Source of the DNA: Antedon mediterranea
Taxonomy: Eukaryota > Animalia > Echinodermata
Length of the DNA stretch: 64,000 nt
Reading direction: 5' to 3'
NCBI RefSeq assembly: GCF_964355755.1
Contig: NC_092676.1
Location: 15,766,871-15,830,870 of the forward strand
The notes beneath the pieces were generated by a model. That model searched no databases, was not told the DNA's origin, and saw only the letters and a program-made list of their open reading frames with translations. The position numbers were made by a program, and so were the translations under genes. Below are positions 1,835 through 64,000 of the stretch, one piece after another. The first letter of the stretch is position 1; the number at the start of each line of letters is the position of its first letter.

Positions 1835-3942
1835 ATTGTTTGAGGTAAAAATTTATTTACAATTTGTTTATTTAAAGCCAGTATTTACATTGGTGGATTA
1901 GATGTCTTGTATAATATCGCCATGTTTTAGTAATAAAATGAAGCAGAATATTGCAGCTCTGTATGTACCGTACCCCATGCCCAAATATTATGTATTTTTT
2001 GAACATTTATACAATAATTTCAATTTAAGTAGGTTGTTGTAAAGTATTACATAAACAATCTAATTAACCATGTTGTTCTCTTAATACCATCTGGCTAAAC
2101 TTTGATGACCCGAACAAGTCTGTTAAGGAGTCATGGAACAGTTTATATGTGCATTGTTTAATAAAGTTAGCAGTTTAGCTAATTTTGTGTTGAACAATGG
2201 ATTAGTAACACCTCTGATGAACTAGACATATGCACCTTTGGGTTCACCCAGAGGGCCTGCAGATGGCACAAATTCATGAATAAAGTAACAATTTATGTTT
2301 TTTTGTAGCAGATTTTGCATGCCCTATAGTAATAGGACATTTTGGCTAATTCAATCCTGTTTTGGAAATAAATATCATCTGTGGGATAGGAGTGTGCTCC
2401 TTGTATTATGCAACAAGGTGTTTTATAATTAATAGTATTATGAAACATGAAATGGAAAAATGATTTATCGGTACAAATTTATATTTGAATTCTATGTTAA
2501 AATAATGAATTATATAAAATAATGTTTACAAATATAATGTTAACACTTCTGTTTGGTCATAGATTAATATTGCAACTATCTTTTACAGGAAATCATTTTA
2601 ACTGTAAAAATGTATTTGTTAGCTACATTGATTAAACTGTATGTAGTTTTTAGGTATTTTTTTGTATTCTGTGCTAGATTTTTTCATGCATGTAATACTT
2701 GCTGCCAATTATACACTTTAATGCTGGCACCGACAAACAACTAACTTTCAGGTTAGTTCAACTCAATCACCTGGAATAATCACATAAGTGCTGACCAATC
2801 ACCTGGAATCTATACAACTTTCAAAGTTAGTTTTCCAAAGCTCTTTGAATATCAAAACACACTGATTAGGTAACGCAAACTTGGCTTAATAGACGATGCA
2901 AAGAATGTGAAACAAACTTGATAGCAATACGGGTAGACGCTGTTTTTTTTGGGAAGGTGAAAATATAAAGGCCTCATTTTTTACAGTATTTCTTGCTAAT
3001 GAAATGACCTGACACTCAATTTTACCGTACTCATAATTTAGCTCATTTTGAATGCGAAATAAACATCAACTCAATGAATGCCTCTAAATATATTAGAAGA
3101 GCCCAAGTCCACATCATATTTTGTTGAATTATGCACTCTTGTTTGTATGACACTGTGACAGCTTATGTAGACAGATATTGTCAAGCTGCTCATCTTCATC
3201 TTCTAATCGATAGGATTTTCACCTGATGGCCTACATTATCCTTTGTTATTAGTTCATGTATGAGATGCTGGGTTGCTTTGCTCAAATATTTGTTGAGTTT
3301 TACGACATCATTCTTCTTAACTTGGAGTGTTTAGCACTGCCCAGTTGGCAGGGTAGGCTTAACATTGGGCTTCAGTCAGGTAAATCGGAGGCAATTCAAT
3401 CCCATCATGACTCTTGAACTTCATTGGGATGTGCCTTGTTAAAGCAAAGATGCTTCTACTGTGATACAACGGGTAACGATCAGTGTTTTGCTTGTTAACT
3501 ACTTGAAGTAGCTCAATAGATGGCCGAAGAAATCCTGTATTACTTCAAACACTCTTGAACCATTAACAATCCATCCGTCAAACACTCCAATCTATCTCAT
3601 CCTCTTCTTCTCAAGTGTCTGTCACATAGTAAGCCATCTGAATACACATTCACTTTCTTTTACGTCTTCTGCTTCATCAGTGTTACATTCTAGTCTATTC
3701 TCACAGTTGGTACTTATCATTATATATGCCAAATTGTTTTGAATGGCGTACGTTTCCTGCCAGCCATTATGATAAATTACGTTCAATTTTAGCATAGTTT
3801 CAAATTTCAATTTAAAATTGGGGTGTTTTAAAGACCACTGAAATATGCTACATGATCGTCCTGGCTCATCCATAGGATAGTGACTTAAAAATAACGATTC
3901 TATATATACAGTACTACTGAAAAATATTAAAGAAATTAAATG

Positions 3943-4757
3943 TTATACCTTCCAGTGTCTTTCAATATGTTCGGTATGAACACTAAATGTGTCTTCACCA
4001 TAACGTGATACCATATATTTTGCCACCAGGGTGTTTTCCAACCCCATATCCGTACGCACCTTTGTAGGGATGCCGTAATTACCAACAGCACCCAGGAATC
4101 TTTTCAATACGGTCTCTGCTCTATTATTAGAGCTGCACTTACAAAAACTGGCAAGCGTGTAAAACCGTTGATTGCCCATGTACCACAATTCGCCATCTGC
4201 GACAGATAATATTTACAAAATTAAAACAATAATAATTAATATTTTTCAGTCATATGGTAACCTGCAAGCGTGTAAAACCGTTGATTGCCCATGTACCACA
4301 ATTCGCCATCTGCGACAGATAATATTTACAAAATTAAAACAATAATAATTAATATTTTTCAGTCATATGGTAACCTGCAAGCGTGTAAAACCGTTGATTG
4401 CCCATGTACCACAAATCGCCATCTGCGACAGATAATATTTACAAAATTAAAACAATAATAATTAATATTTTTCAGTCATATGGTAACCATTAAACATGGT
4501 GTTATTGAATAAACAGGGTTATACCTAATGAGTTTATGGTTTCCATCCATTAGCCAGAAGGCATTTGGTCCAGCAAACGCTGTATACTCTGCACCACATA
4601 GTTTTCGCTTTGCGTGTTTCAATGCCTTCCGCATCTGCTCTTTTTGTAAACTAAATGCGTTCCATAAGTTTTGGAAAGGAAACCATTCTTTGGAGGTTTT
4701 TTTAAACAGACCCTTAAGTTTTGATAAAAAATGAACACTCCCAGAAGACATGCTCAT
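3943..4757 (-). pseudogene. Degenerate intron-containing integrase-core (DDE) transposase remnant, possibly IS3EU-like
   Basis: GPNAFWLMDGNHKLIR | intron | WRIVVHG (frameshift) AINGFTRL..CSSNNRAETVLKRFLGAVGNYGIPTKVRTDMGLENTLVAKYM..SVHTEHIERHWK. This matches the recalled WHIDGNHKLIRW..HGGIDG..RVRSD.G.EN..SVHNQRIERLW integrase-core family. It is frameshifted and internally deleted. Confidence 0.75.
4151..4489. repeat. Tandem repeat, 113-bp unit x3
   Basis: Unit gcaagcgtgtaaaaccgttgattgcccatgtaccacaattcgccatctgcgacag...catatggtaacc starts at 4151, 4264 and 4377; copies are near-identical. Confidence 0.95.
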
Positions 4758-20329: not shown

Positions 20330-20452
20330 ACACTAGTTTGACAAGAAAGTGTGATGTGCCCAAATATATGGTCGTGATATGACGTCATCGTGTCCATATG
20401 TGGCCACATCACACTTTTTTGTCACATAAAGTTTAATAGTGTAGACAGAGCT
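20330..20452. mobile_element. MITE (family B), left end truncated
   Basis: gtgtgatgtgcccaaatat..gtgatatgacgtcat..ccacatcacac..aagtttaatagtgtagacagag matches 34905-35025. Confidence 0.7.
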
Positions 20453-21249
20453 ATAGGATAAACCCCAAAAATAAACATTTATGAGGAAAAGCATCTACCG
20501 AATCTTCTTCTTTTCATTGACTTTAAAAAGGCTTTCGGTAAAGTTGAGTGGATTATCAAAGACTATTCGCTGCATCGTTAAGGTTTTGGTAAAAATTAAA
20601 ATAAACCAAAATATGCCTAACGACAAAACCGGTTTAGTGGCATCGTTTACTCGGCTCAAGAGGACCGCAGAGCATGCAGGGGAAAAAGATCCGAATACAG
20701 TAATTAAGTATAACAAAATCTATAATAGTATACTGTATTTAGAAAACGGTCCTTCAAACGTCCCTTATAAACAAGCATTAACATATCGACCTTCTGTCCC
20801 CAGTGAAGGTCCACCTTATTGCCAAAACCAGGACATTCCATCAAGTTACGTGATTAACTTGCGTCAGAGTTTTTCTCTATCTTCGCAATATTGTTTATAA
20901 TTTGATATGTGCAAAACTCGGGTAAGTGCCGACTGACGACGCGATGTGCGTCAATCAGAAGGATATAATTTAAGTCAATGACGAATGATTTCATGTTAGT
21001 CTTCTTTCATTCAATCAATTATTGGACTCCTTTCAACGTTTCAAGGCGTTTGCATTTTGTAATAACAAAGGCAACTATGAAAGAGGTTCATTAAAAAAAT
21101 TTGTATTAAAAAAACAGTACCTTATTCGTTATCTTTCACCGTTACAACTGATAAAATAATAAAAAAAACGTATTTGTAACTAAATTTTCCTGGTAAAGTC
21201 AAAATGAAATTAAAAACATAATAGAAACAAAGTTCACTAACTGTATCTA

Positions 21250-23404: not shown

Positions 23405-24068
23405 TATATAATGGTCGCTAATTGGAGGTGTCTGTTAGTAAAATGATCTTTAATTGAAAGAGGACCAGTATAGTAGTCACCCCTACCAATTAATAAAATG
23501 GTCGCTAATCAAAGGTGTTTTAAGTAAAGTAGGCCTAGTCTTTAATTGGAAAAGGACCAGTACTTAATTACTTGTTTTTGTCACAAAATTAAAACTATGC
23601 ATTCTTCTTGTCTTTATTCATACTAAATAATATAATGGTCGCTAATTGGAGGTGTCTTTAAGTAAAGTGATATATAAATGGAAGATGACCAGTACAGTTA
23701 CCTAATTTTGTCACATAATTAAAACTATGTATTCTTCTTGTCTTTACTCCTACCAATTGATATAATGGTCGCTAATTTGAGGTATCTATAAGTAAAGTGA
23801 TCTTTAATTGGAAGAGGACCAGTACAGTTACTTAATGTTGTCACATAATTAAAACTATTTATTATTCTTGTCTTTACTCTTACCAAATAATAAATGGTCG
23901 CTAATTAGAGGTGTTTTAGGTAAAGTGATTTTTAATTGGAAGAGTACCACTTCATTTACTTGTTTTTGTCACATAATTAAAAATTATTTATTCTTCTTGT
24001 CTTTACTCTTACCAAATAATAAATGGTCGCTAATTAGAGGTGTTTTAGTCAAAGTGATCTTTAATTAG
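23405..24068. repeat. Tandem repeat, about 100-130-bp diverged unit, about 6 copies
   Basis: The anchor aatggtcgctaat recurs at about 23410, 23497, 23634, 23764, 23893 and 24022, each followed by aagtgatctttaattggaagaggaccag-like sequence. Confidence 0.9.
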
Positions 24069-25031
24069 AAAAAATAACTAGTTTGGCATCATTTAGTATT
24101 ATTGGTCGTTAAAAAAAGACAAGTGCATGCAAATCACAAACACCTATCATAAAACGGCCGGGTTCTTACATAACCGCTAATATTTCCACGTACAGTTTTT
24201 AATAGTGGACGCATTTCAATCCATGGGTCAGACATTATTAAACGGGCCGACGCCTATTTATATTCAGCTCTTGCACCTAAATATCCTATTTTAGTATATA
24301 ATTTCATGTTTCATTAGGCATATGCCATAGAAATTTTTTTTTTAAATGCCAAAAAAAAAAGAATATTTCAGAATATGAATGATTTGTGGTAACGATACAT
24401 TTTTTACGCTTTAATTCATGTGTGATAGATGTCACATGTTTCGTCACACCATGATACCGCCACACTACTTATACGATCATTTGTCACGTAGTCACATGTG
24501 ATGCACATGTTATAGTGTTTGCCTAGATACAGGAGTTGAAAATCAGTTGCACATTTAAGGATAAATTGGTTAATGCAACGGTCATTTACAGATGAGTGAT
24601 ATTTAAGGGTGTACTGACGAAAACCGAGGAAAGAATCAGAGATTAAATTTGTGTGCATTCGCCTTCGGTAAGGTGGAAATTGTTATTACATTATAGCCTA
24701 GGCTAGGCCTTAACACTAGCCAGACCACCAGCACACAGCCGCAATTCTGTCGGCGGCGCGGGACGGTCTGGCTGCGTGTGGCAGGCTGGCTTACATTCGA
24801 AGCTGCTTGCTGTGTATATACTGTTTGTGTGACACATCCGGGATAATCTATTTGTGACCTCGGTAATTTAAATACGACCCAACTTCCGCTGGAGTGAAAA
24901 CATTGAACACTGCATACTCTCGCGCGCTTCCTCCGCTGTCGCAGGTGGTGTGGGAGGTGTGCGAGGAGTGAAATTGAAAATGAGCATTCACAAATGTCAG
25001 TAGTCCGTAGTATTTTAATTTTAAATCTAAA

Positions 25032-25863
25032 ATGTCTGGCAATTGTGAAGCAGTAGGTTGTACAAATCATACACTTATGGAAAATAAACCATCGATTTCC
25101 TAAAGACCATGAACGTAGAAAGAAGTGGATAAATTCACTACTACTACAAGAATTGAATGGTGATGGTTCAGAATGGACACCATCACTGCTAGGATATGTG
25201 GAGAACATGCGATTAATGGTAGGTCTAATGTAGTAGGCTAGAATAGAAATTAAAATTTATTTTCATTTTGCTGAATACTGTTACTGTACAGAAATACTGT
25301 AATATAAATATACTACTTAAAAAAAAAAAAGGGGGTCCATGTTTGTTAAACTGAGTGTAGGCCTAATAGGCCTATATATTAACTGACTTCGCCCATTTTC
25401 ATTTGCAAATGATATCTGGTCATACAGCGAATACAGTTTGTAGATGAGAGGGTACTTTCTTACACAGAGTTACAGCTGGATGGTTAGACAGGCATCCATA
25501 ATTAATACTGTGTACAGTACATGGGATCTAGGCTTGTTGGAGTGTACCAACAAAACCTTTGATTTAGAGATAATATGTGTGACCTATTTTCTGTATAGCC
25601 TAGCATCAAAAGAAAAAAAATTAAATGACACACCACACCCAAAGTAGACATTACCATTTTTATTATCTAATTATTCAGGTAAGCCAAATCATGCTGACCC
25701 TGCACATCCAGATTATACACCATCTGTGTTTAGGCACACGACTGCAAGAAATGGTAAAAGCAAAATGAGCAGGTACAACAGTGATGTAAAAAGACTGAAA
25801 TTGAGTTCACCACACAATACTCTAGTAGAGTGTCCAAGCATAGACAATGAGCCTTCCACTTGA
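25032..25863 (+). pseudogene. Frameshifted THAP-domain gene remnant (probably transposon-derived)
   Basis: MSGNCEAVGCTN..(fs)HRFPKDHERRKKWI..EWTPS(fs)ARICGEH..NG | intron 25219-25678 | KPNHADPAHPDYTPSVF. This is the C2CH THAP signature with FP, W and the AVPTIF-like box, disrupted by two frameshifts and an early stop. Confidence 0.8.
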
Positions 25864-26767
25864 GAAGAAACTCTAAATAGTGGTCTACTTCCAGCAGCAG
25901 AGGCTCTCTTAAACCTTTCTTCTGTAATGCCTGCGGATTACCATGCCAACAATCCTGCAGCTTTCGACACAAATGTCTAAGTGAGAAAGCCATGATGTAT
26001 GATAAGATGAACACTGTGTGATGCAACATACACGTGTACTGTGCATTCTGGGTGTGATTAAAACAAATTTAATCTTATATAATAGTACTTTTGAAGGATG
26101 GTATTGTGTATATTATGATATGAATAAAAAATAAATCCATTTAGCAAGATAGTACTTTCAAATGAAATATGTAAGATTTTTTCAAGTGTATGCAAATAAT
26201 AGCATATATTTATTTTATTTTTAAAATACTGTATATCTGATTACTTTTTATTTGCAAATACAGTATATACAAGTTGAAATAAAAATTTCATTGATCTTTA
26301 TGTGTCGACAACAATTTGTTTAAGAGTAACTGTAGGCCTATTATTATTTTATAAATCCATTATTTAATTTATCAAAAACATAACTTGACCAGAATCTATG
26401 ATTTTTAAAGCCTACAATCACAATCAGTGCCTGGTTACCATTTACTAATATTAGTAAACGATCAATTCATGTACATGGTAATAGCCATAGCCATAATGGT
26501 ATGATTATTAATGCCATTTTCCCCCTATTCATACCTTTCAAACGAGGGGTTATACAGTTATGTGCAATTAATAACTTATTAATATTGTTTAAAGGTTTGC
26601 ATCGTGAAGAAATGTATTGTATTGTAGCGAAACATAAATTACTTTCACTAACTATTTATTGTCCTAATTAAAGTTCATTTTTATTTATTCTGTGTTTTTA
26701 GATTTAAAAAAAGTTAAAACTTGTTCAGTCATCTATTTTTAAAAGTTATAGAGCATCAAAACTAGAA

Positions 26768-29700
26768 ATGAGCCGCAAAAGGTAAATGTGTTTGTTAATA
26801 GTTGTTTGTTAATAATTTTCATGAAAATCTATTGATTAAAATCTTATCTCCATTCAAAAAATACAAAGACTATTAAACTGAAAAATCAAAATGCATGAAA
26901 ATATTCTCCTCATTCAACTCATTATTTGTATGTACTGTAACATTGTGGAGTTCTAATCAATGATTCGACTCTATATTAATATGTTCATTCCTACTGTCCT
27001 ATTTTCCTTGTTGAATAGAAAAGTCAATCTTTTTTCAATCCCCATTCATAAACATTGATCATTTGTATAGTATTGCATTAGTCCTTTGGGACAATCTGCT
27101 GATTGTTAAAATTGCTATATACTGTATACAACATTAACATTACTAATAATGAATTTATATATCGTGATATCCTTTAGTAGTCTAACTCTTGTGACTGTCA
27201 CATGATGCAGTTTTATAACAAAATTAATTTTATATTAAAACATTTACATCTAGAAAGTACAATACTTTAAATGATGAGGTTAAAGAAATATTGATGTCTT
27301 ACTGGGAGCGAGGAATGGACAGTTATGGCTGCGAAGGAAAGAGAAAACTGATAGCTGATGCAGCCATAGAATGCGGTATAACCCAAAATCAGGTGAAGGT
27401 AATATCATTGATTTACATTTTAATTTAAATTGACAGCTTATTTTAAACACACACAATTGTGATTGATAAAATACATGTTTTTTATTTAGTAAATTAATTC
27501 ATTTTCATTCATTTCATGGTTAATTAAAAAATTGCAATAATAAGAAAAAAATGACATACACAAATATACAACAAAAACAATACATAAAAAAGTACCCTGG
27601 AAACATAAAAGATATAAATAAATATAAAAAGGGGTAACCAAGAAAAAGGATGACCAAACGGTCGTTTATTATTAAAGGACATTGTTGACAAATCTTTCTG
27701 TGCAAAACTTAAATTGTGACTTATTGCTGAAGCGTAAAATGTGTTTCTATAATTTCTAGGATTGGGTTGGAAATAACAGGAAAAAGGTAACAGGAAAGAA
27801 ATATCAAAGAAGTGAAACCATCAAGAAAAAGACCCCCTCTGGCTATAATCTTTTTTTTAAAGACTATTATGTTGAAGGTACAGTATTTTTTATTTGTATT
27901 GTTTAATAACCATCCTCATTCATTGTTGAGAGAACATCAGACTGTCATGGACTGGTTTCAGTTGACATGCATTGACTTTGACATTGAGTGAGAGGAACCA
28001 GCAATTTATGTGCTTCATATACAGTATATATGTATTTTTACATTTTTTTCTCATATTAATTTATCAACATTCGAATAGACAAATAAAAAATAAATTGTTA
28101 GGTGCTCTTCTGTCCGATCAGGATCCTCCTGGGTAGGATCGCTTATGTCTCTGATTGGATCATACTGCATAACCGCATCTGATGATTGTTGATATCCTAT
28201 TGTTTTATTATTAAAATGTGTACATGTTTATGTTCATTCATCAGCACTGTCAGCATCAAACAAAATTCATTTTTTCCCTGTAGAATTAGCCAAAGGAAAC
28301 ACAAAAATCGATATTTTTAAAGGTGCTCCACATGTATGGAACCAATTGAAAGAAAGTGGTGAGGCTGAGAAGTACTTCAGTATGGCCAACAAGCTGGAAT
28401 TACCAGATGTTACTGAATTGTCTGAGGCACAGAAAAATAAACAAATAGATCTGATAATTAAAGAAGTAAACGTAAAGGTGAAGCTTTTGATTTAGCTATT
28501 TTGATTTATAAACTTCTAACAAATATGTCTGTTATGTAACATTTCAACCCATGAACAATTTAAAATTGTAATTTCTAAGAGTTCATAAATGTTTAGACCA
28601 GTGGAAAAAACTTACGCTAAGAGTTGCTGTCAGTTGTTATGTTGCTAAGATGACAGTTGAACTCCTTTGCAGCCACTGCATGGTTTTGCTGTATAGTCTA
28701 GGAGACCAGTTGTTAGGAGTTGATCATGTGACATGCTTTATAATTTATGAATTCTATATTATTACTAAATCAAAATTAGATGAAATTGTTTTAACATCGC
28801 ATTATTGTTGATGCTTTCAACGTTGTTTTACAGATTCAAAAGCTTTCTGACCTAGGCGTTGAATGTATCGCCACATTTGTAACTCCAATGAAGAGCATCG
28901 TAGAAGTAGGAACACAAGTTGGAAAACAATTTATAGAGCAAGACAACACTAACACAAAATTTGCAGCCTTTGTTCACTGTATGTATGAGTGTTTCTGCTG
29001 AAAAAACCCTTATTTTAGTCAATTATTATTATTATTAACATTCCAGCTGCCTAAATGACTGTGTGTGATTTTGGTTTAAAAACGAATAAGAAGTGAACCA
29101 AACTCCTTTTACCCTAATATTAAACAAATTTTTATTTAAATTTTAAGCAGCAAAATAATGGTTTTAACCATTATTTTGCTGCTTGAAATTTGCCCAGCGG
29201 TTTTTGATGCCAGGAAAATGGGTTTTTTTACTCGCAGAAAAGCAAACATGTAAATATTTAATAATTTATACATTTAAATGTAGTAATATCATAACTAATC
29301 ATTCACTTTTATTTTATTTAGTAACGGAAACTGGAGTATTGCCTGTAAACACTGTCAAAGAGGCCACAAACAAGAAACGGTTAAGAGCGGAAGTACAGAA
29401 GCTTTTTAACCGTAAATATTGTAAGTAAAATTAAAGTTAAAATTTAATAATTTGAGTTAGTTAGAACAGCTAAATATGAATAAACAAATTCTACAAAAAT
29501 GTCATCTAATCTGTATGTTTTTACCAAGTAAAGAACTTCAATGATATTTGTGGTGGATGGTGTTGAAATAAATAGAAAGTACATTGGTCACAAAATAAAA
29601 CACTTCTGGTTTTTTTTCAAAAAAAGCACTTCTAAGTTTTATAAAATATTCATATCAAATGCAGATCAGTCATGAGTAATAGGCTTAGAATATAATGTTT

Positions 29701-32700
29701 AATATTGTTTATATTGTTTTTGAATATTTTTATTTTTTAAGTTATTGGAGTTTGAAAACTAATTCTGTATTAAACCAACTATGGGTTATCGAGTTACATA
29801 ATTTCATAACCTTATATTTAGCCAGTCACTCTTCCCTGATATAACATAGTATTCATTTGGATTAGGAACTTTATTTAAACACGATTAATTTCCAATACAG
29901 AATAAATTAGATTACATAACGTCTAGTTTCTTTCTCAGGCTCAAAGCTAACTTGTTTGTTATTCATTTCCACTCAGAACAATTCCCATTATATAGTACAG
30001 TATTTTAAACAATTTTTGTTTTCACACCTAGTGAATTAGTTATTCATGACCACACCTACTGTCTGCTTTGTTTCTATTGGGTGGAAATTGTTTTGAGTGA
30101 CACCTGACTTCCTATCTACTGTATAGCTAGGAAATTTGAGTAAAATGTGTTCATTCAAATTAATTAACAGAAAATATAGAAACTTCATTATGATCTAAGA
30201 AGAAAGAAGAAAGGCAGTATATAAAAGAAAATGGAAAATGTTGTCAGAGAAAGCAATCAAAAAGAGATTCTATTGCATCTTGAAGGTTGCAAAAACTGAA
30301 ATGTTCCAGGTAGAAAATATGAGATGCCACAGAACTAAAAAGAGAATGATTGAGGAAGAAGAAAAAGATGGAGCCAAATATTCTATGCAAAGTCTTGGTA
30401 AAGTAGTTACGGCATGCAAACAAGAATTTGCCTCCGACTCCTTGTAAAGACCTCCAGTTTAAAGGAATATGAGTGTTATCAAAAGAATTTTGCAATGTTG
30501 AGCTTACCGGCATGAAATAATACTGGTAGTCATGGTATAGAAAGGAAAATGTGGACACTGTGTTGATGCTTATTTCGTCCAAATCACAAAGATGTTATGG
30601 ATAACGACAGATGGTTAGAAAAGGCATGTACCAAAGAGATTTCTACAGATGTCACTCAGAGAATGCCAAAATCTTTTTATCTATTGAGTCATCAGATAGA
30701 CCAGCATTTGTAAGCCTATCAAAGGACTTCTTGCATACGTTTCATGTTTTCAAATACCATGAAAATGTGAAGCTTCTTTTGCAAGTTGTTAAAACTGCAA
30801 CAACATATGAACACATTAGAACGAAATTTCGCAGTTGTATTGGATTGATAACTTGTGACCAATAGAATAAAGTTTGCATGCTACAGGGCTGTGATGGCTG
30901 TTGATCCAAATTCAATGACCTTTTCTACTTCTCAAACATGGAAAATCAGAAACACTGTTAGAATGTATTGATCTCTTTCAACAACAACAAGTTTATTTTG
31001 GTTTATACTAGCCTTTGTGAGACAACTACAGAGTACAGCATTTGAAGCACAAAATTAGCTGTTTTTCAAATTGATTTTTGCAGAAAACTTTTCTGTAATA
31101 CACCAGAATGAAATACAAAGCAGGAACTGGAATCATCTTTTCCATCTTCACTTGCTGTGTTCATGCTGGAGGTATGCAACTGTAAGCATGAAAATACTTT
31201 AATTTAGTTTTGAAGGAAGGTGAAATTACTGCAATATATATATTTTTACAGTGATGGGGTGGCAAAGCAGTTCAAACAAAAACCTTTTTTTTTAAATATA
31301 ACTCATTTTAAAAAGATTACAGTATTAGGGGATCAAATGGACATGGAATTTCTTTTTGCAACTTCACATGGAAAAGTTTTGGCAGTAACATAAGTGGTAT
31401 TGTGAAGAGCATGGCACATTAAAAGATAAAACTTTGCCATTTTGTGAATGTTGTAAAAGTAGTGAGTGAAATTGTGAAAGGCGTAAATGTTATCTACATC
31501 TACATTTCCAAGTGATTGGAAAAGACAGAACCAAGATAGATAGTTTTTTGGCAAATGTTAGGACACTAAAGACTATGAAGTTGTGACAACATAAGCAGTA
31601 GTAATAAAGGAACGATAAATGCACAGAAAGAAGATTTTTTTTTATCAACTATATAAAGGAAATAAGCAAGGAAATTGTTAACGCCCCATCTCTGTCCTTT
31701 CTGTTTTCTCTAAAGCTTTAGAAAGGGTAATCTACGATCGTACATTTTCATTTATCTCAAAACATAACATTCTTAACAAAAATCAATATGGCTTTAGAAA
31801 AGGTCACAACACACCCATGGCTCTCATTGACTTAACAAAAAAAATTGTTGACGCATTTGAAAGTGGTCATCTAGCCATCGGCGTTTTTATAGATTTGTCA
31901 AAGGCATTCGACACAATAGACCACAATATACTTTTATTTAAACTATCCCATTATGGAATCAGAGGGCCCGCATATGATCTTTTCAAAAGTTACCTTACCA
32001 ATCGTTTCCAATGTACCAAGTATTCTAATTCTGTCTCCAACTTCAACCCTGTTACTTGTGGTGTTCCCCAAGGCTCTCTTCTTGGCCCCCTCCTATTTAT
32101 TCTATATAGTAATGATATATATCTTTCTTCTTCAATTCTTAATTTTTTTCTATATGCTGACGACACCACTGTTTATTACTCTGACCCTGATGTTCAAACC
32201 TTATTTAATACTGTTAATACCAATCTGACCCTTATATCTCAATACTTTTCGGCTAACAAACTTTCTCTTAACCACAAAAAATGTAACTTCATCCTGTTTG
32301 GGACCCCTCAGAAAATTAAAAACATTGATACTGCAAACTATAACATTTCTATCAACAATCATGACATTCCCTCAGTCCAATCTGCTACATTTTTAGGAGT
32401 TCATCTTGACAGTCGACTTTCATGGAAAAATCACATCAATTTTGTTGAGAATAAAATTTCTTTGGCATCATCACTAGACTTTCTTCTTTTTTACCCCCTA
32501 ACATTCTTCGTATTCTTTACTGCTCCCTCATCCTGCCTTATCTTAACTATTGCAATATTGTCTGGTGCAACTCTTATCCTTCCAGTATTAAAAAACTTCA
32601 AACTCTTAAAAAAAAAGGCCATCAGGGTTATATCTGGCGCCCCACCCCTGTCTCATTCATCTCATCTTTTTTCAAAGCTCCATCTTCTCAAAGTCTCTGA

Positions 32701-34393
32701 TATCAATCTAACCCAACAAGGCTTGTTCATTTTTTCTTCTATTAATTCTAACCTTCCCAAACATCTCTGCTCCATGTTCACTCCAAATTCTTCAATTCAT
32801 TATCATCATACCCGTATTTGTTCAAAATTACATATTCCCACCCATAAAACCAACCACTTTCAACACAACATTAGGTATTCCGGACCCACTTTTTGAAACG
32901 ATCTGCCACTCCCCATCTTAAACTCTGTTTCTAGCAAATCATTTTTATCTAAACTTAAAAGTCACCTTATTTCCAAATATTAACTTTCCTCTGTGGTTTT
33001 TTTTTTTTTTTTAAATTTATTATTATTTTTTATTTTTATTTTCATTGTCTGTGTTTGTAATAGGTACGTCCTCCACAAGATGTGTTTTTCATCTTTCTGG
33101 GTTTGTACCTTCTTCTTTCGAAATTTTGTTTACATATATATTGTTCATTGAAAACTATTTTGTATATGAAAGGAGAAAATAAATGTTGCTTTGAATTGAA
33201 TTGAATTGAATGTTGCAATTGTTGATTACATTCCCAGAGACAAATCTGAATTTAACATTATTCATTTATACAAATTTGATAAAGGAGGGACACTTTTCAT
33301 TGTTGGTTTAGGATAATCAATATACAGTAGCTCAAGTACAGTAATATCTATAGTTCCTTCCAGCACCATTGATAGACAACTTCACGAGGCTATAGGATGA
33401 ATGTTTTTTTGTGGATAATCGATATATTGTAATTACAAACCATTGTATTGTAAATATTAAAACATTATGCTGACTGACACTAATTATCAGTAACCATTCA
33501 ATTTCATAATGTTACTTTTCTTTCATAGAATAACTTATTTTATTCTAATAAGACTGTCTGTGTTATTTATTTATATCTAGTAATAATTAAAATTTATAAT
33601 AAAAATGTTTGTTTTTTAAATTGTAGTTGAGGCAACTGGAAAAGCACATGTATCATACAAAGAGGTGGACTGTGGAAAGATCTATGTTTCAGGACTACCA
33701 GATGGTATTGTCTTCAACAGACCCTCTTCATATGGTGTTGCTGCTATGGAAAGAATAATAAATGAAAACAACATAACATTTGCATTAGGTATGAACATAT
33801 TGGTACAGTATATTAATATTATAGACACATAGAAAGTTACAAAAATGCTTTTATATTGGTACTGTGCATTCTATTCTATTTTATATCTTAATTACATTTT
33901 TGTAAGTTGAATGTTTTTAACCTTTAGGCTGCTTGTTCATGTTTTACACTATAATAAAAAAAATTACTGTGACTTTTGCATGAAATTTTGTATGTAATCT
34001 TATTTGATAGAGAAATGAAAATAGCACATTTTTTATTCTTCTAGGATTTAAAGGATTTAAGCGCAATACAAGTGAGTTGACCAATGACAAAGTGGTAGTT
34101 CAGATAATACATTGTTTGTGATTGGTCAAATTACTTGCACTGTGTTTACATCCTTTTATTGCATCTTAGTGCAAACCCACCTTAAGAAAATTATGTGAAA
34201 ATGTAGGCTTATGTTATGTTGACTAATTTAAGAAAAATCATTGACTTAAAACAAAGTTATGATGATTAATTGGATGATGATTTGCTAAACATGTTTGATA
34301 AATCTGACCGATGATATTTAATTATTTTTCATTTACTTAATTGTTTCAGTCACAGATGCTGAGCAAGAAGCCTCTGGGCCCAGTGACAGCTGA
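26768..34393 (+). CDS. Uncharacterised putative transcription factor: HDX-like homeodomain + HMG-box-like segment + TFII-I-like region with a single GTF2I-like repeat, 8 coding exons, 306 aa
   Basis: Exons 26768-26781, 27254-27398, 27760-27877, 28284-28477, 28834-28978, 29322-29420, 33627-33788, 34350-34393. All introns are GT-AG, phases are 2,0,1,0,1,1,1, and the total is 921 nt with no internal stop. Translation: MSRKRKYNTLNDEVKEILMSYWERGMDSYGCEGKRKLIADAAIECGITQNQVKDWVGNNRKK...KKTPSGYNLFFKDYYVEELAKGNTKIDIFKGAPHVWNQLKESGEAEKYFSMA...LSDLGVECIATFVTPMKSIVEVGTQVGKQFI...LRAEVQKLFNRKYFEATGKAHVSYKEVDCGKIYVSGLPDGIVFNRPSSYGVAAMERIINENNITFAL... Confidence 0.8.
30180..31620 (+). mobile_element. Highly degenerate DDD transposase remnant, Sola2-like, in intron 6 of the homeodomain-GTF2I gene
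   Basis: Fragments YHENVKLLL, LITCD..VCMLQGCDGC, QIDF/AENFSVIHQNEIQSRNWNH, FYSDGVAKQFKQK and WNFFFATSHGK, with many stops and frameshifts. The Sola2 assignment is from recalled motifs. Confidence 0.7.
31682..33210 (+). mobile_element. 5'-truncated LINE (CR1/L2-group reverse transcriptase) with 3'UTR and (GAATT)n tail
   Basis: [67 protein letters not shown]. Frameshifts near 32460 and 32610; ttgaattgaattgaattgaa tail at 33191-33210. Confidence 0.92.
34040..34185. mobile_element. Degenerate family-A MITE
   Basis: gagttgaccaatgacaa ... ttgtgattggtcaaattacttgc matches the internal inverted motifs of the 18100 and 61915 copies. Confidence 0.6.
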
Positions 34394-34904
34394 GAAGAAT
34401 ACAATTTAGAGATTGGAATCGAGTTTCTTTTGTTGGACGCATCTTGGTTATGAAATTACTTTATCTGTGACTCAACAGTTTTTTTCCATACTCGGTTTAC
34501 TTTCAAGACAAAATCATTGATCCATGCACAGGTGCATGCAACAAAAACACTTTTCAGAAGTCTAAAGTCAAGAAGCATAGGATTCAACACTAGGTGTGCA
34601 CCTCTTTGATGGAATAACCAATGAAACTATGAACTTTAAGTTCTGTATTTTGATCAGACTTTAATATGAATATTTAAGAGTAACTGTCATAGCTTTCAAA
34701 TTAAAACAGGGACACAAATCATGAATCATGAAAACTTTATTTCCTGTGGCCATGAATATCATCTTTATTATTAATTATTATTAATATTAACTCTAGCTTC
34801 ATTAGTTTATTAGGTTAACCATAAAGTTCTTTTTATAGTAACTAATAAAAGTAAATATGTCCGCACCCAATGAGATTGCCTCTTTGTAATGTGTTTAGGC
34901 GCTT

Positions 34905-35025
34905 TAACTCTGTCTACACTATCAAACTATATACCCAAATATGGTAGTGATATGACATCATTTCCATATATGGGCACATCACATTTTTTGTTGTCAAATA
35001 AAGTTTGATAGTGTAGACAGAGCTT
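34905..35025. mobile_element. MITE (family B)
   Basis: TIRs ctctgtctacactatcaaact / agtttgatagtgtagacagag; related copy at 20330-20452. Confidence 0.8.
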
Positions 35026-35399
35026 TAATGCATTTCTTCACAGACTTTTCCATTTCTTGATATACACACAGGAATATAACACTTTTAAACTATAGTTACA
35101 TGATTTAGATTAGTTTACCTACTGTATACATTAATTATAGATTAGTAACATTATTTATGGAGCGACAGTAGACTGTTTATCTTTACTCACTGCCTTGTAT
35201 GTGGATTCCATGCAACAAATAAGATGCCAACTTAAGTCGTTGTTATGTGTTCCTCCTCAAAGATGATTAGCTAAGAATAAAACATGCCAGATGATTTAAG
35301 TTTTTGTAACTTTGAAAAGTATTAATTCATGATTAAAGTAGTAAAGTACAGTATTAATGTAAAAGTTATGATTCTTTATTTCAGGTTCACTTATATTGT

Positions 35400-45800: not shown

Positions 45801-48800
45801 ATCAAAATCTCCTAATTATGCAGGCTGATCTTTGAATATCACCTTTTAGTTCAATGAAATGAAATTACCAATGCCGTATGATATAAATTCAACCAATCAA
45901 ATGATAGGCATGGTGTATATTGCTAATTCATTAGATTTTTTAATATTTTGAACAGCATTACAGGTTATGGTTTCAAGATATATTGTCCCCCTGAAAAAAC
46001 AATTTGATGAATATGCCATTTTAATGTCACATAATAGTTTGACCAAAATTTGGTTGAAAAAAAATATTTACCTGAAAATATAGTCAAATTGACTGGAAGT
46101 CAATGGGCTTAACTGTTTATTTTGTCTTTTTACGGGTGAAAACTGTTTTTTTCCTGTAAGTGATTAACCATTCAATATTTTTTATTAATCTTAATTTTTT
46201 TTGGGACAATACATCTTTAATAAGATCATGTTTATTATTTAGCCTCCTGGGCCAATGAGAGGACCACCACCTCCACGTGGACCACCACATGATCAGCGAG
46301 GACCACCTCAAAGGTCGCCAGGTAAGATACTAGATACACCTCATAGTACGTGTTTGAAAGAGTAAATTTTACCCTCAACTTTAATTGAATGTCAATAGTA
46401 AATAATCAATCTGGTTTTATTTTTCAGGACCATTTGGTGGACCACCTCCACATGGCGGACCACCTCATGGCGGTTCCCCTCATGGTGGACCACCACCCCA
46501 TGGACATCATCATGGTGGTCCCCCTCATGGTGGACCCCCTCATGGTGGACCCCCTCATGGGGGACCTCATCATGGTGGACCTCCCCATGGTGGACCTCCC
46601 CACGGTGGACCTCCCCACGGTGGACCTCCTCATGGTGGACCTCCTCACGGTGGACCTCCTCATGGTGGACCTCCTCACGGTGGACCTCCACACGGTGGAC
46701 CTCATCACGGTGGACCTCCTCACGGTGGACCTCCTCATGGTGGACCTCCTCACGGTGGACCTCCTCATGGTATGCCGCCACATAGTGGTCCTCCCCCTGG
46801 TGGACCACCACATCCAGGACCAGGTGGCCCTCCACGTGGACCTCCTATGCCAGGGATGCCTCCTCCAGGACCTGGTGGACCCCCTCCTCAGAGAGGCCCT
46901 CCCCAACAATATGGACCACCAGCTATGGGTGGGCCACCGCCGCATCATCCTGGGCCTCCACCTCCTCATCCTGGTCCACCACCCCATCATTCTGGTCCTC
47001 CGCCACCACATCATCATTCAGGTCCACCTCCTCCTCACCAAGGACCACCACAACCACAGTATCAACAGCCACATCCTCAAGGACCTCCGCCAACACATCA
47101 AGGACCGCCACAAGGACCTCCTCCTCATTCTGGGCCTCCACCACATCCAGGACCACCACCTGTTCATCCAGGACCTCCTCCTCCAGCACCTCATGTCAAC
47201 CCAGCATTTTTTCATGGGAATCAAGGCCCTCCTCCTCCTACTTCACAAGCCAACTACACTCCAGATCAGTATAAAACATCAGACAGGTTCCCTCCACCAG
47301 CACAGCCAAGATATCCAGATGACCAGTACAAGACACCAGAACGGTATGTCTTCTTATTAATCTATTTAAATATTAAATTTCTATTCTGAAATATTTATTA
47401 TTATAGCCCTATACAGTTTGTGTAACCATGTGTTCTTTACAGCCTCAATATAAATCATTTACTTCTTCTATATTGGTTTTGTAAAAAAAACACAAATGAA
47501 TTGAAGTGACAAATATCGGTATTATTCTTGTTTAATATTCTCAGACGAGAGAATCCAGCACCTGTAGAAACGCCAGCTCTCAGTGAAACAGAGTTTGAAG
47601 AAATCATGTCTCGTAATCGAACAGTTTCCAGTAGTGCCATCTCAAGGGCAGTCATGGATGCTAGTTCAGGTAAGAAAAAGTACCTATTAAAACTAAAATA
47701 GTCTGATTTCAATCATGCATCCAAATCGTTTTTTCCATGTCTGTCCTGTATTGACCTGTAAACTTAATTTGTGTGTAGCTTTCCCTCGCCCACTTTTTTC
47801 TTACTAGTTTTCATTACTGTAATGTGTCATTACTTGTATCGCACTTGCTTTGTTTGTTTGTTAGCACGATAACGCCCACAATTTCTAAGTTATCATCCTG
47901 AATGTTTGTATGTACTTGCAGAACATGCCTATTGATTAAAATCTTACCTGTATCTTCCATATCCGATATTAAATAGAACGTCTGTATTCTTTTAACATGG
48001 ATCGAAATATCAAGTAGTGAGCCCTCTCTCTCCAAATATAATTTTTCCCTGCAATGTAATATTCAGTACTTCACTCAGTTTCTGAGTGCTTTCATCTGTA
48101 TGATTTTTTTTGCTTGATTAAACAGACATGTGCAATTTGATCAGATTGGATTGTTTTAATATTCCTCCAATTGAAATTCTTTTGTTTTACTGAATTAATC
48201 TGTTTATTTCCTTAAGAATGATAATTAAGTTACTTCTAACTGTATATGGTTTTCTGTTCTTAGGGGAATATGCATCTGCTATCGAAACATTGGTCACCGC
48301 AATCTCCTTGATCAAACAATCTAAAGTGGCATCTGATGATCGCTGTAAAGTAATCATCAGTTCACTACAGGATTGTCTTAGAGGCATAGAAGATAAATCC
48401 TATGGTAGTGCTGTGTAAGTATTTGCAAAATTCATCCTCCAATCCAATTGGGTGTACATGTTATGTTGATATTTAATGTACATTTTATTTATGATGGCCC
48501 TCCCATGAATTCAAAGTTAAAATGAAGTGTATTTTCCTTGGAATAGTACTACTACAAGCAGTAGCAGTAGTAAGAGAAATCGTGACAGAAGTTCCAGAGA
48601 TCGTGAAGAGCGCCATCGCTCTAGGGAATCGAAGAGCAGTCGCCACAAAGAAAGGCGTGAGAGATCACGCAGCCGAGGTAGTAGGGAACGTGAGTACCGT
48701 GAAAGAAGCCGGGATCGTGAATATCGTGACCGTGACAGAGGTGAACGTGAAAGCCGAAGCGATCGAGAACGTGACAGAGATCGTGAATATAGGCGCCGTT

Positions 48801-57460: not shown

Positions 57461-58060
57461 TAGTTGAAATATATATCTTTGGATCATTTGCAGATACACC
57501 ACTTCTTCATATCTCTTTCTAGGCAACAAATAGCAAACGGAGCAAAAACATACTGGTACATATCTAATCTGAATTGTAGTTGTACAGTAAGAAACGCTTG
57601 CCCATGTTTTAAATGAATTGAAGAATTTCAATTCAGATAATTTCAATTCAGATAAAATATTATGTGCCGTGCCAATTTACCATGTAAAAACTGACAGAAG
57701 AGTTTAAATAATTACACATATACTATTTCTTGGACATTTAAGCAATTTATTTTTTAACCTTTTGTATAAAAATGAATATTATACTGGCCACTGGCTTGTG
57801 CAATAATACATAAAGTACATGGATCAAAGTACTGTTATATTTACCATGTTACTGAAAATACAAAATGCAATACTGAAATTGTTAATAACACACACATTGT
57901 TTATAAAAAGATACAGAAATATAAAACAAATTAAGCACCACAATTATTTGTTATCACCACAGCTTTGGTATGTAATATAAAATGAAGTAGCATGATATTT
58001 TATCAAGGAATTTTATATGGTCTCTGGCAGTGACTTTAATCAAGGAACTCTTGCAGACAC

Positions 58061-61000
58061 TTAGTCTTGGTCAAGAGTTTCTTTATCAAATGTGTATTCT
58101 CCAAGGCCTGTGCCAACATGCTTCAGTGATCCTATGTAATCAGAGAGTTTCTTTATGGCTTCAGTCTGCTCGGCCAGAAATGTGCCATCAATGAAATCAG
58201 CCAGCTATAAGACAATGTCACAAAATAAATTGAGATTGGTCCATGCAATTGTAGTAAAATCGTTCCATTATCCTTAATTTTAAGAATATTGGTTGGATAG
58301 TCATTGGAATGAGCGTGGATATTTTATTCAATATTTAAATTATAGGGTTGATTTTCACATGCAAAATAATCAAATTTCTGTAGCAAAACTCATGAAGCAA
58401 ACTATTAAGAATAATTAAGAATAATTATAATGCAGCCAAATATATAGGTATATTTACATGTTTGTCACCATGCTTCTCAGCTATTGCATGAAGGTCTAGC
58501 AATGACTTATTGACAGTCTTCTCAAGACCTAGTGCAACCTGCATAGCTTCCAATGCTGTACCCCATTCATCTTTCTCGGGTCTCTTTAAGAAAAAAAATG
58601 TAAATAATTTGTTTAACATGCTACACGAATAACAGACAACTAGTGAAGTGTTTGGGTGCCACAATCTCCTAACGCCCATGGATTTGATCATAAATAATTT
58701 TATGTCTAGCAGCTTCTCGCTAAACGTAATTTAATATACATAACAGCATTTACATTAACCGCTGGCCAATAACCAGTTAAATAACAAGACCGCTTGCAGG
58801 GAAAAATTTCATTTAAAAATTTTGTTTAGCAAAATTGCTAATCAAACTGATTGTTGAGTCTAGAAACATAGTTTTGTATTGCATTTTTTGCTACACAATT
58901 TGCAAAATGTGTAGCAATAAGGTTGTTTTGTATAGCTTTTTGCTATGCTACACTGGCGAAATTATTCCCTGCGCTTGGCCAATAAAATCTCAAAACATCA
59001 ATAATAAAATTCATCTCTTCACGATATTTCACACCTAGACTAAATGTCGATTGTACCTCATTTTGACTTTTTTAAAGTTAATTGAAGGCCTCCAACTTAT
59101 AGGCCCAAATTCTGTGACCAGTAAATGTGGAGTGGAGGACAAGTAAAAATGTAAATTTTACTGGTCCGCTTTTGTAGTTAAAAAAACCCCAACAGAGACA
59201 TCCGTAAAGATAGAAACTTAATGTCACAAATATTGATAAACTTACACAAATATCTTGTAAAACCATTCTGCCACCTCGTTGATTTTGGTATGTCATAAGC
59301 TTCATTGCATGTTCTCTTTCCTCATTGGAATTACTTTGGAAAAATTTAAAGCAGCCTTTTAAGGCTATATCATCACGGTCAAAATAATATGCCTGTATGT
59401 AAAAAAAAAAGGTTTTAAAATTGTATTATGTTCTTATTCTGTCTATTAAATAATGGACTGTTCTGGCCTAGAAATGTACTCCATTTAAAAAATGACTCGT
59501 CTATGCAGCATGGATAGAAATGATTTGTATCAATCAATTTACAATGTCTCTTGCCACCAGTGCACAGACTGCTCACAATTTAAAAACTTAATTGCAACCA
59601 GCTATACCCATGGGAGTGCAACCTGTGCATTCATTCATTCAATCTTTTATTTCAGAAACTTTGGTTCATAGAAAGTAAAAAATTACATATAAATGAAATA
59701 ATAAACAAGACTAATTACTACTACTCATCTCAGGATGACATTCCACCTGAAGAGCATCTTCGACATTGCTTATAATCGTTGAGATTAAAATATTTTTGCT
59801 TGCATCAAGTCTACACATCAGGCCATATATTAATTTTCTTAACAATTCATAAAAAGAAGGAATTCTACATTTCGTAAACATGAGGCTGGCACTGCAATGT
59901 CGAGGCCTATATGATGGCGATTGTACAGTAGCTACCAGATCCAGAATGTTATAATTGATTAACGTTAATATTTATTTACATTATCATACAATCCCAACTG
60001 TCCTGATTTTGATAGTAATGTCCCACTTTTTGATGTGTCCCAGTGTCCTGCATTTCAAAATATTTTATTCTATAAAAAATGTCACCGAACCAAAGAATAT
60101 AATACGACTGAACTTAATGTGAACCTTTATCTTTCGATTTCGATCTACCTCCCATAATGTATTTAAAAAGGCTTTTGGATATTTTAATTTCAACATTATT
60201 TAATGTGATTTCCAGGTGAGACCACTGTCTAGGTGGACACCAAGAAATTTAGCGGATTCAACCGTGGGGATGTCGACATTGTCCAGGGTAATTTTTATAA
60301 AGAGACTGGTCAATGTTTTTTGTAAACTTCTGAGGGGTTCCAAACAAGATTAAGTTTGAATGAATGTTTGAATATTGGGTGAGAGTAAATGATGGTCGTG
60401 TCGTCGGCATACAGAAAGAAAAATGGGAAAGAGAGGTAGATATCATTAATATATAAAATGAATAGAAGGGGACCAAGTAAAGAGCCATGGGGGATGCCAC
60501 AGGTAGAATAATTAAAGTTGGAGATAGAATCCAAGGTCCACGGATTCCATAATGTGATAATTTGAATAAAAGTATATCATGATCAATAGTGTCAAAAGGG
60601 TTGGTTATTGTTTTTAAAAAAAAACCAGAAAAGCCTAGCGGGTGTCAAGACTAATTTACAATGTCCCCAGTATTACCTGGCAGGGTTTTATTATAAAAAA
60701 AATGTTACATACAACCCCTGAGTACTGTACATGCTACGATTATTAAGTTATTGGTTTTTTAATTATTTTATTTATTTGTACGTTTATTATACATTAAAGC
60801 ACTGCTTATGTTTATTCCAAAGACTATGACGTTTTGTGGCGAAGACGATTGACACGTTTTAGGATGAGAAGTTTAACAATGTCAATATTTAAATAAATTT
60901 AACTTGTTTCGGAAAGAAAAATATTTAAATTAAATTTACCACTAGGCCTAACATGTTAATTATAGGCCTACTTGTTGATACTTATGTTTTATAATAAAAC

Positions 61001-61284
61001 CCTACCGGGCGTTGATTAGGCCAAATAGTAAATACATTTTGGGACGTTTCGACCCAAAAGTGGGGCGAATCGTCCCGGATTCCCTAGTCTAGTTGGACCG
61101 GCGACTGGCCGGCCTGCCTGCCTGCCTGCGTGGCCTGCCTAGGGTAGTTTAGTAATGGCATTTTTTGGTAATACAGGATACCTACTAATGATAAATATAC
61201 ATATGAAGCGTAAAGTTCTAAGTTAATTTGCTTATTGACAGCAGCTTCTGACTCTTCGTTGTAATTCTGGCGACATCGAGACAT
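58061..61284 (-). CDS. Ferritin, H-type with intact ferroxidase centre, 4 exons, 171 aa
   Basis: Minus-strand exons 61284-61186, 59392-59246, 58583-58458, 58204-58061, all phase 0 and GT-AG. Translation includes [81 protein letters not shown]. Residues equivalent to human H E27, Y34, E61, E62, H65, E107 and Q141 are all present. Confidence 0.95.
60185..60598 (-). mobile_element. LINE RT fragment related to the 31.7-kb copy, in ferritin intron 1
   Basis: [67 protein letters not shown]; internally deleted and frameshifted. Confidence 0.88.
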
Positions 61285-61405
61285 TTTACCACAAAAACCA
61301 ACCAAAAACAATTTCGGCCAAACAGTGTTTGTTGTATTCAGAAAAATATGAAACGCCAAATCTGCCTTCCAGTTTCCGTCAATTATTTGACGTGAGCTGG
61401 GATTT

Positions 61406-61414
61406 CTATTTATA
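61406..61414 (-). promoter_or_regulatory. Candidate TATA box of the H-type ferritin gene
   Basis: TATAAATAG on the minus strand about 120 nt upstream of the ATG at 61284. Confidence 0.55.
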
Positions 61415-61627
61415 GGCCTAACAATCGTTTTAAATAATGAGGTAGGCCTACGTTTGTGTTGTTCATCATTAAAGAATTTTTAATTTTAATCATTTGATTA
61501 GTACATAGATTGTTTATAAGCATTGAAGTAAAGTATTAAGTAGTAATTCTAAATAATTTTTAGTAAAGAGCCAAACTGCACTTTTTATTTATAAACTTCT
61601 ATCATTTCAATTCGAAATAGACACCAG

Positions 61628-63200
61628 CTATAAATTGGTATCCTCCAATGTATTACAACACGTGCAGTTGTCATTGGAAAGCAATTCTCTATCAAATGCG
61701 TGTTCTCCATGTCCGGGACCGACACGCTTGAATGATGTTACGTAATCAGCAAGTTGTTTAAGGACTTCAGTCTGCTCAGTAAGGCGTGTAGCTACAAACT
61801 GCATCAGCTAAAATAAAAAAAATCATATTGGTTAAATTTATTAAGCAAATGCAAATTCAGGAGGACGCAAGCAAACACCAATTCGAATAATCCATCGTTT
61901 GTTTGTCAAATCTCCTAAGGTTGGTTCTCACCTAGGACGCAACGCAAGGATGTAGACTCAACGCAAGCGAGTTGACCAATGACAAGCGATAGTTAATTCA
62001 TCGCTTGTGATTGGTCAAATCCCTTACGCTGAGTTACGTCGTGTTGCGTCTCTAGTGGGAACCAAGCATTAAGCTTGGTTTCTAACGCGTGGTTCCCACT
62101 AGCGACGCAACACAAGGACGTAACGCAACGCAAGTTAATTGACCAATCACAAGCGATGGCTTATTCGCTTGTGATTGCTAACTGTCTATAACTTCGCTTG
62201 TCATTGGTAAAAACGCTTGCGTTGCGTTTACGTCCTTGCGTTACGTTCTATTGGGAACCAAGCTTAATATATGACTAATCACAAGCTATTGGTTAATGCG
62301 AACTTTCGCTTGTCATTAGTCAACTCGCTTGCGTTGCGTCTAGGCTTTTATTTAGCCTGAATGGTGAATACAGTCACTGATCACGATGGAGCTGCCAAAA
62401 CTGAAAGAACAAGACAAAATGTGTCAAAAGCGTACTTACATGTGTGTCAGTATGTTTTACTGCTGTCTTATGAATGTCAATCCATGATTGATTAATATGC
62501 CTCTGAAGATCAACTGCAGAGTTCATAGCGTCCAAAGCTGTACCCCATTCATCTTTGACGGGTTTCTATGATAAAAACATTGTTAATAAATAATTAACAG
62601 ATACATACAGGTTGGTCCCACTACACAATAGCGTACGGTACGTATCGCATTTATGTTTAGGCGCCACAATCTCCATTACTCTTAATGCCCATGAATCGAA
62701 TTGGGCTGAGCACATAATTTGTTGATGACGTGACGGCGGTCTTGCAACTTCTCACAAAAAAAAAAAATGGGGAAACGTTTTAATCGGCCACATAAAGTTT
62801 AATCTTTAATATAACAATGATAAAAATGGCGAGCGATTTGTTCTATATTTCACTTACACTGATTTCGTTTAATACCACTCTGCCCCCTCGTTTATTTTGG
62901 TATTTCATAAGCTTCATTGCATTTTCTCTTTTCTCACTCGAGTTGTTTTTGAAAAATGTAAAGCAGCCTTTTAATGCTACGTCATCACGGTCAAAATGAA
63001 ATGCCTGGAAAAACAAACGTGTGCATAGATAACATGGTGCACATGGTATTTGCCTGAAACTACTACAGTATAGGAGAGGCAATAACGGATATCAAACTTA
63101 CTAATGATAAATATGTATATGCGGCGTAAATGTCCAAGTTGATATGTTTATTGATAGCAGATTCTTCATCCTCGTGATAATTCTGTCGACAGAGAGACAT
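61628..63200 (-). CDS. Divergent ferritin paralogue with substituted ferroxidase ligands and a Cys-rich C-terminal extension, 4 exons, 183 aa
   Basis: Minus-strand exons 63200-63102, 63004-62858, 62565-62440, 61807-61628. Intron positions match the neighbouring ferritin, and there are no stops or frameshifts. Translation includes [92 protein letters not shown] on the minus strand at 61584-61589. Confidence 0.9.
61915..62345. mobile_element. Cluster of three adjacent or nested family-A MITE copies in ferritin intron 3
   Basis: Repeated ggttcccactag..cgcaacgcaagga..gaccaat(g/c)acaagcga termini. Copies at about 61916-62070 and 62088-62266, plus a split copy ending at about 62345. Confidence 0.85.
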
Positions 63201-64000
63201 TTCCTTACCCGGCCTGACCAAACTGAAATACGTCTTGTCAAATGTATGAAATACAGAATACACCACGTCTCACTCCGTAATTTTGAATGTTTTCTCCTCA
63301 GCTGCATACACAGTTCACATGCAAATGAGGGGTTTTTGAATACTTAAAAGAACAGAGACGATAAATACTGTTCGTCACGATAATCGATTGCTAAACTATT
63401 ATTTTTTTCTTTTACTTTATTAATTGTCAAGTGTATGAGTTTTTCTGGTTGTAAATTTAAATATAATTTTTTTTTGGTTTGTGGTCGTGATACAACATGA
63501 TTGAATTATTCAAAACTATATAACTTTAGTGTTAGTGTCGTAGAACAGTATTAAAACCTTATTTTAATATATGACTAATTAAATGTACGAGCATGCGTTT
63601 CAGTATAAACGAGCGCTGTGATGGATATATTATTAAATGAGAGGCAACAATGTTGACAATAATATAATGATGATGTTGCCTCTCGTTTTTATGTTTATTA
63701 TTAAATGAAAGCAGACATAATTAGTTAAGAGTTAACTAATGGTGAATAATATACAGTACATAAATAATGGGATCGATATTTCGGTGTGTAGGTGTTTCTG
63801 TACTGTTGTGAGGCCTATTGAAAGTATAAGCACATACTTACATCGAAAACAAAGCTTAACACTCTTACATTCCTTCCTTGTGGTAAAGAGATTAAGTGTA
63901 TGCGAGATGAAATATGAGTTTTAATATTCTGAATTCGATAAATTTAGAAAGTCCGGCGTGTTCTGCCAGTTGCGCCAGCACCGTGTAATGAGTAACCGGC

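Follow-up and report, generated by a model that had tools for sequence, protein, structure and literature searches.

The window, by which we mean the whole 64,000-nucleotide stretch of Antedon mediterranea DNA analysed here, contains a multi-exon gene on the + strand between a BTB-domain gene and a gene starting at about 36800. GT-AG borders flank all seven introns, and the eight exons splice into a coding sequence of 921 nt that encodes 306 aa with zero internal stops, in agreement with the earlier note, which had joined them in phase. Their GC content is 33-57%, versus 24-33% in most introns. A query with exon 7 returned one protein, the NCBI/UniRef entry 'uncharacterized protein [Antedon mediterranea]', of 306 aa and identical at every letter; evidently an annotation pipeline arrived at the same model independently, and the gene is annotated but unnamed, not hidden as the note had it. 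An in-frame candidate exon of 27 nt (34045-34071) was dropped, as it sits in a dispersed repeat and the length of the transcript contig described below fits without it. The features of the locus are:

24551..24667, + strand: putative first exon of 117 nt, non-coding and within CpG-rich sequence; its donor follows 24667, joint inferred only
25032..26193, + strand: broken THAP-domain gene in two exons, lying within the inferred first intron; exon one has two frameshifts, exon two has stops from 25679
26702..26781, + strand: exon 1; inferred 66-nt UTR, ATG at 26768, coding part 26768-26781; residues 1-5, basic N-terminal arm
27254..27398, + strand: exon 2; residues 5-53, helices 1-2 and beginning of helix 3 of an HDX-type homeodomain
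27760..27877, + strand: exon 3; residues 54-92, recognition helix (W55, G57, N58, R60), basic linker and start of the HMG box
28284..28477, + strand: exon 4; residues 93-157, completing the HMG box (which ends at about 130) and adding the long helix that opens the middle domain
28834..28978, + strand: exon 5; residues 158-205, beta-hairpin and helices of the TFII-I N-terminal, MADS-like domain
29322..29420, + strand: exon 6; residues 206-238, linker and first helix of the I-repeat
about 30100-31650, + strand: broken DNA-transposase-like reading carried in intron 6; no Pfam transposase match
31682-32896, + strand: LINE reverse-transcriptase fragment interrupting the transposase-like reading (RVT_1, 117 bits)
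33627..33788, + strand: exon 7; residues 239-292, body of the I-repeat
34350..34708, + strand: exon 8; coding part 34350-34393, acidic tail, stop at 34391-34393; 3' UTR reaching at least 34708; no chromodomain

No read run was recorded as RNA; run X1 was guessed to be RNA, and runs X2, X4 and X5 cover the introns continuously, as DNA does. One X1 contig of 1420 nt (depth 52.1) is placed by its letters 1059-1420 on 34348-34708 only, and the depth listed for 24655 is equal to it. Coding exons 1-7 (877 nt), the stretch between the acceptor at 26702 and the ATG (66 nt), the first exon (117 nt) and the part from 34350 (359 nt) add up to 1419 nt; one inserted letter is listed in the contig at 34675. 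The depth comparison used 21 bins, the other 9 of 30 being repeat-dominated. Six of the ten exon-holding bins lay within 2 of the predicted X1 depth and four were higher, and depth was 2-12 in eight of the 11 intron-only bins; the three higher ones comprised two over the THAP remnant and one at 30260-30643. None of the 15 joints listed is a splice joint, and the support for splicing and a likely mRNA is thus indirect, with the junctions inferred. CpG observed/expected is 1.2 and 0.9 across 24001-25000, versus 0.16-0.58 across 25001-29000.

The THAP match of the remnant (E 0.004) is below the cut-off. The remnant has its own X1 contig (25678-26193, depth 46.3) and seems to be transcribed separately from the four-module gene. 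The intron-6 insertions, at 30100-33400 overall, do not belong to the gene. The reading at about 30100-31650 resembles a DNA transposase in its motifs. It was considered as a partner gene and rejected as a likely later insertion, having no Pfam family and facing only a short intron (335 nt) at the matching place in the metagenomic locus L003. An intact frame amid these decayed insertions argues for selection on the Antedon gene. Two repeats lie close by: a 130-bp unit repeated 4.5 times in tandem (85% matches) at 23484-24070, just 5' of the inferred promoter, and a small palindromic repeat at 34900-35030 and 20339-20455, whose summed contig depth reaches 10^5-10^6 in all four runs.

The encoded protein holds, in order, an HDX-type homeodomain, an HMG box, a middle domain and one I-repeat; the earlier note had named the first two and the last in the right order and overlooked the module at residues 139-206. 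The best match of the homeodomain is PDB 2da4, ahead by 24 bits, which itself matches the second homeodomain of an HDX-named protein (P0149), and HDX-type proteins reach 56-66 bits on the profile of the four-module family, bearing out the proposed HDX type. Both homeodomains are atypical: extra residues are inserted between helices 1 and 2, and helix 3 reads W-I/V-G-N. HDX, however, carries a pair of homeodomains separated by about 430 residues and lacks the other three modules; the Antedon protein shares the homeodomain type without being an HDX. DNA-contact positions are kept among the relatives (W48 in 38/40, N51 in 35/40), and the Antedon homeodomain retains W48, N51 and R53, with G at position 50. 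The HMG-like box of the note stands too, with a three-helix HMG fold and a profile match. The two specificity positions of its helix 1 are Ser and Asn, a combination that likely goes with DNA bending without sequence choice.

The I-repeat (PF02946) scores 51.1 bits over a cut-off of 27 and has PDB matches as well, as the note had expected. Vertebrate TFII-I/GTF2IRD1/GTF2IRD2 have the middle domain (139-206) as their N-terminal dimerisation ('leucine zipper') domain, placed before the first repeat, and it is the strongest tie of the Antedon protein to that family: modules 3-4 are co-linear with the first ca. 210 residues of the vertebrate proteins, and HHalign gives 99.4% over 154 columns for the middle domain plus I-repeat. 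According to the available part of PMC3493543, the homologous N-terminal region of GTF2IRD1 dimerises and I-repeats are unique to the three TFII-I proteins, and in that of PMC3438194 they are independent DNA-binding modules with an RGATTR core. The Antedon protein itself falls outside the TFII-I family, because it has a single repeat, not 2-7, and because the GTF2I/GTF2IRD1/GTF2IRD2 clade of our quick tree (13 rows, SH-aLRT 100) leaves it (P0001) out. It differs further in the homeodomain and HMG box that precede the repeat, and its relatives often end in a chromodomain, are often multicopy and range from cnidarians to fish. It would work like a minimal TFII-I with added DNA-binding domains, yet is no member. 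The suggested invertebrate relative of TFII-I therefore holds as to the link, through the shared N-terminal domain and repeat, but not as to invertebrates, since teleosts have the form too (zgc:113176).

The predicted fold of the middle domain (helix, beta-hairpin, helix) is MADS-box-like. In the fold comparison MADS-type chains and NRF1 occupy ranks 3-7, ahead of every unrelated row, and in Foldseek they lead once I-repeats are set aside. The helix, beta-hairpin, helix dimer module is that of the MADS-box proteins SRF/MEF2 and of NRF1 (PDB 8k4l, 8k3d). In NRF1 a DNA-binding domain is linked further downstream and lines up with the I-repeat; the unit of middle domain plus I-repeat aligns with NRF1 co-linearly but weakly. 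The SRF-TF signature (PF00319) was absent in Pfam scans of the Antedon protein and the scanned relatives, and no MADS chain turned up in a further search. On the predicted model, then, the MADS and NRF1 links are links of fold only and speak for proteins that would work alike. In the Atlas, mollusc C2H2 zinc-finger proteins and hypothetical proteins of Basidiomycota have the same predicted fold as residues 132-212 (TM 0.74-0.79), and the MADS-like module may, on these models, be distributed more widely than the four-module family. Feature matches to Basidiomycota clusters (0.81-0.86, under the 0.9 bar) are leads only.

The Antedon gene belongs to the family of zgc:113176 and of unnamed database relatives. 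All four modules occur in 45 of the 150 listed relatives, and many relatives also bear a C-terminal chromodomain. From 30 representatives looked up, the family includes echinoderms (Anneissia, Antedon, Holothuria, Acanthaster, Patiria), amphioxus (Branchiostoma), cnidarians (Dendronephthya, Exaiptasia, Hydra, Clytia), molluscs (Pecten, Octopus and, from a separate search, Mytilus), the annelid Capitella, Priapulus (with a partial architecture) and the teleosts Sardina (zgc:113176), Poecilia and Cololabis; Atlas clusters hold 166 members (mostly Cnidaria) and 58 (mostly Mollusca). The Sardina protein (P0028) has the same four modules in the same order at about 28% identity to the Antedon protein. 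The nearest relative, Anneissia P0004 (40%), has a C-terminal chromodomain, of which tblastn of P0004 (E<=1) found no remnant 3' of the Antedon gene. Homologue searches by word index had little sensitivity (1, 3 and 5 matches); P0043 and P0096, with none of the four modules, were treated as false relatives. Two scans of viral contigs (103 and 88 pattern matches) yielded no relative. The quick tree, unrooted and built from the 94 of 151 proteins with both domains near full length, has the TFII-I proteins as one clade in an unsettled fork with crinoid, amphioxus and octopus rows, the teleost four-module proteins apart from that clade, and no one-to-one pattern. Two unusual members were met: Priapulus P0053 repeats the homeodomain-HMG unit two to three times per chain, and in the crinoid protein Anneissia P0008, with a homeodomain, four I-repeats and C2H2 fingers, the I-repeat has multiplied independently of vertebrate TFII-I, though in parallel with it.

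Several members occur as near-identical copies. One Dendronephthya cluster has 11 named loci on about ten scaffolds, the nine compared being 99.3-100% identical to the representative; identity is 94.5-100% within two further Dendronephthya clusters, one of Hydra and one of Cololabis, and only 30-45% between such sets. The closest Antedon paralogue seen is 37% identical. A metagenome scan gave 8 loci from 41 pattern matches, which appear cnidarian-like as judged by similarity to the query alone. Five of them (L003, L004, L005, L006 and L008) share gene DNA that is 90-98% identical within flanks of at least three unrelated kinds. As no homeodomain/HMG exon was found in the 1.0-3.5 kb upstream of L003, L005 and L006, and their flanks are unrelated, these are truncated, dispersed copies. 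Three introns of L003 sit where the crinoid gene has them, and its middle exon is likewise 145 nt long (exon 5 of Antedon, phases 0 to 1 in both); the gene structure is therefore ancient. At L007 an intronless 461-aa helical ORF (2649-4031, +), with no clear Pfam family, lies beside a lone I-repeat exon, and the P0140 gene model joins a KDZ-transposase-type CxC cluster to a middle domain, an I-repeat and a chromodomain. THAP or CxC fusions were seen in two of 49 scanned relatives.

En/Spm TnpA and the Harbinger Myb protein are helper DNA-binding genes of DNA transposons, and the four-module family resembles such helpers as a multi-exon DNA-binding gene with near-identical dispersed copies among its relatives. 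It differs from them in its domains, and neither terminal inverted repeats, a target-site duplication nor an intact partner transposase was found at the Antedon locus. On balance we think it somewhat probable that the family is transposon-borne as a helper gene.

Our preferred reading, to which we give a probability of roughly 0.55, is that the four-module protein is likely a dimeric DNA binder and its gene a tamed copy of an animal DNA-transposon helper gene. According to the model, two middle domains probably join their beta-hairpins to build a four-stranded sheet of MADS type, the arrangement of SRF and NRF1. The I-repeat of each subunit, on a flexible linker, would read a half-site like the DNA-binding domain of NRF1, the homeodomain would supply a second sequence read-out, and the HMG box would likely bend DNA without choosing sequence, so that the multivalent dimer could coat and bend repeated sites. 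TnpA of En/Spm bridges sub-terminal repeats, and in a transposon the dimer may do the same, with the chromodomain of many members reading histone methyl marks. The Antedon copy, now presumably a host transcription or chromatin regulator, is likely tamed because it has no chromodomain, no detectable ends and no intact transposase, while its frame survives amid decaying remnants.

The best-surviving alternative, which we consider unlikely, is an old, ordinary family of host transcription factors that transposons never carried, with the same dimeric mechanism and lineage-specific duplications and losses. Such a family would suit the introns conserved between L003 and the crinoid gene, the multi-exon Antedon gene with its CpG-rich promoter and likely mRNA, the single long form conserved across three Octopus species and the missing element ends and partner transposase; it sits poorly with several sets whose copies, spread over different scaffolds of single genomes, are 94-100% identical (30-45% between sets), with truncated near-identical copies in unrelated flanks and with a tree that has no one-to-one pattern. 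Less probable still is a still-transcribed helper gene of a dying transposon without a host role, the THAP remnant being its partner and the 130-bp array its sub-terminal repeats. The remnant does share the strand of the gene, within its inferred first intron, the array is just 5' of the first exon, and in amphioxus P0094 a THAP domain is fused to the same cassette, but that fusion is a single locus, no element ends occur at the Antedon locus, and the closest paralogue seen is only 37% identical. Moreover, no damage is seen in the 921 nt or at the 14 splice sites, beside a THAP gene with frameshifts and stops and two decayed intron-6 insertions, which points to selection on the gene after mobility ended. 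A further reading accepts the modules but sees in the middle one a plain helix-hairpin unrelated to MADS/NRF1, and takes the protein to act as a monomer or protein scaffold instead of a dimeric DNA binder; this is very improbable given the fold ranks and Foldseek result above, the conserved W48 and N51, and the dimerising GTF2IRD1 region (available part of PMC3493543).

Under the tamed-helper reading, vertebrate TFII-I would have arisen from such a gene by loss of the homeodomain and HMG box and multiplication of the repeat, and HDX by keeping only the homeodomain, doubled. The four-module family is likely the source or sister of both; we place it at the origin because its range is wider, the tree being unrooted and the direction inferred. 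More tentatively, and with somewhat less than even odds, the helper gene, uniting homeodomain, HMG box, MADS-fold dimer module, I-repeat and chromodomain, may predate the cnidarian-bilaterian split and have been tamed repeatedly, with vertebrates splitting it into TFII-I and HDX; the TFII-I 'leucine zipper' would then be a MADS-fold domain, and TFII-I and NRF1 would share a dimer-plus-reader design.

How general transcription factors evolved, TFII-I among them, is reportedly treated in a 2013 paper. The Antedon gene is real and comes from an apparently undescribed four-module family: neither the architecture, nor zgc:113176, nor a MADS-like N-terminus of TFII-I is described in the full-text literature searched, a scope outside which most subscription journals and Repbase fall. 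The architecture that the earlier note did not recognise is absent from that literature, though the 45 relatives show that it is no one-off. The available portions of PMC12730594 and PMC12062965 (the KDZ link) have nothing on the family, PMC10027918 leaves GTF2I unmentioned, and PMC12428995 has nothing on origin; the hAT transposases misnamed GTF2IRD2, as covered in the accessible text of PMC10641963, are a separate matter. Published accounts place the I-repeat fold among the novelties of jawed vertebrates (PMC9541633) and list HDX as an orphan without invertebrate orthologues, its class only tentative (PMC2211742). One chain of 306 aa that holds all these parts, from cnidarians to fish, offers a testable origin for TFII-I and HDX. 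The predicted MADS-like TFII-I N-terminus would give a concrete structural model for the dimerisation of the Williams-syndrome factors, and a small one-repeat protein, which fish have too, makes the structure of an I-repeat on DNA easier to approach.

Elsewhere in the window, about 20 tandem 15-bp units at 46406-47389 (+) code for GPPHG repeats within a gene that presumably resembles CPSF6 (the tested exon had no Pfam match), and two tandem ferritin-like genes lie at 58000-63300 (-), with Pfam Ferritin on one exon and direct repeats of 73-85% identity 3.6-4 kb apart.
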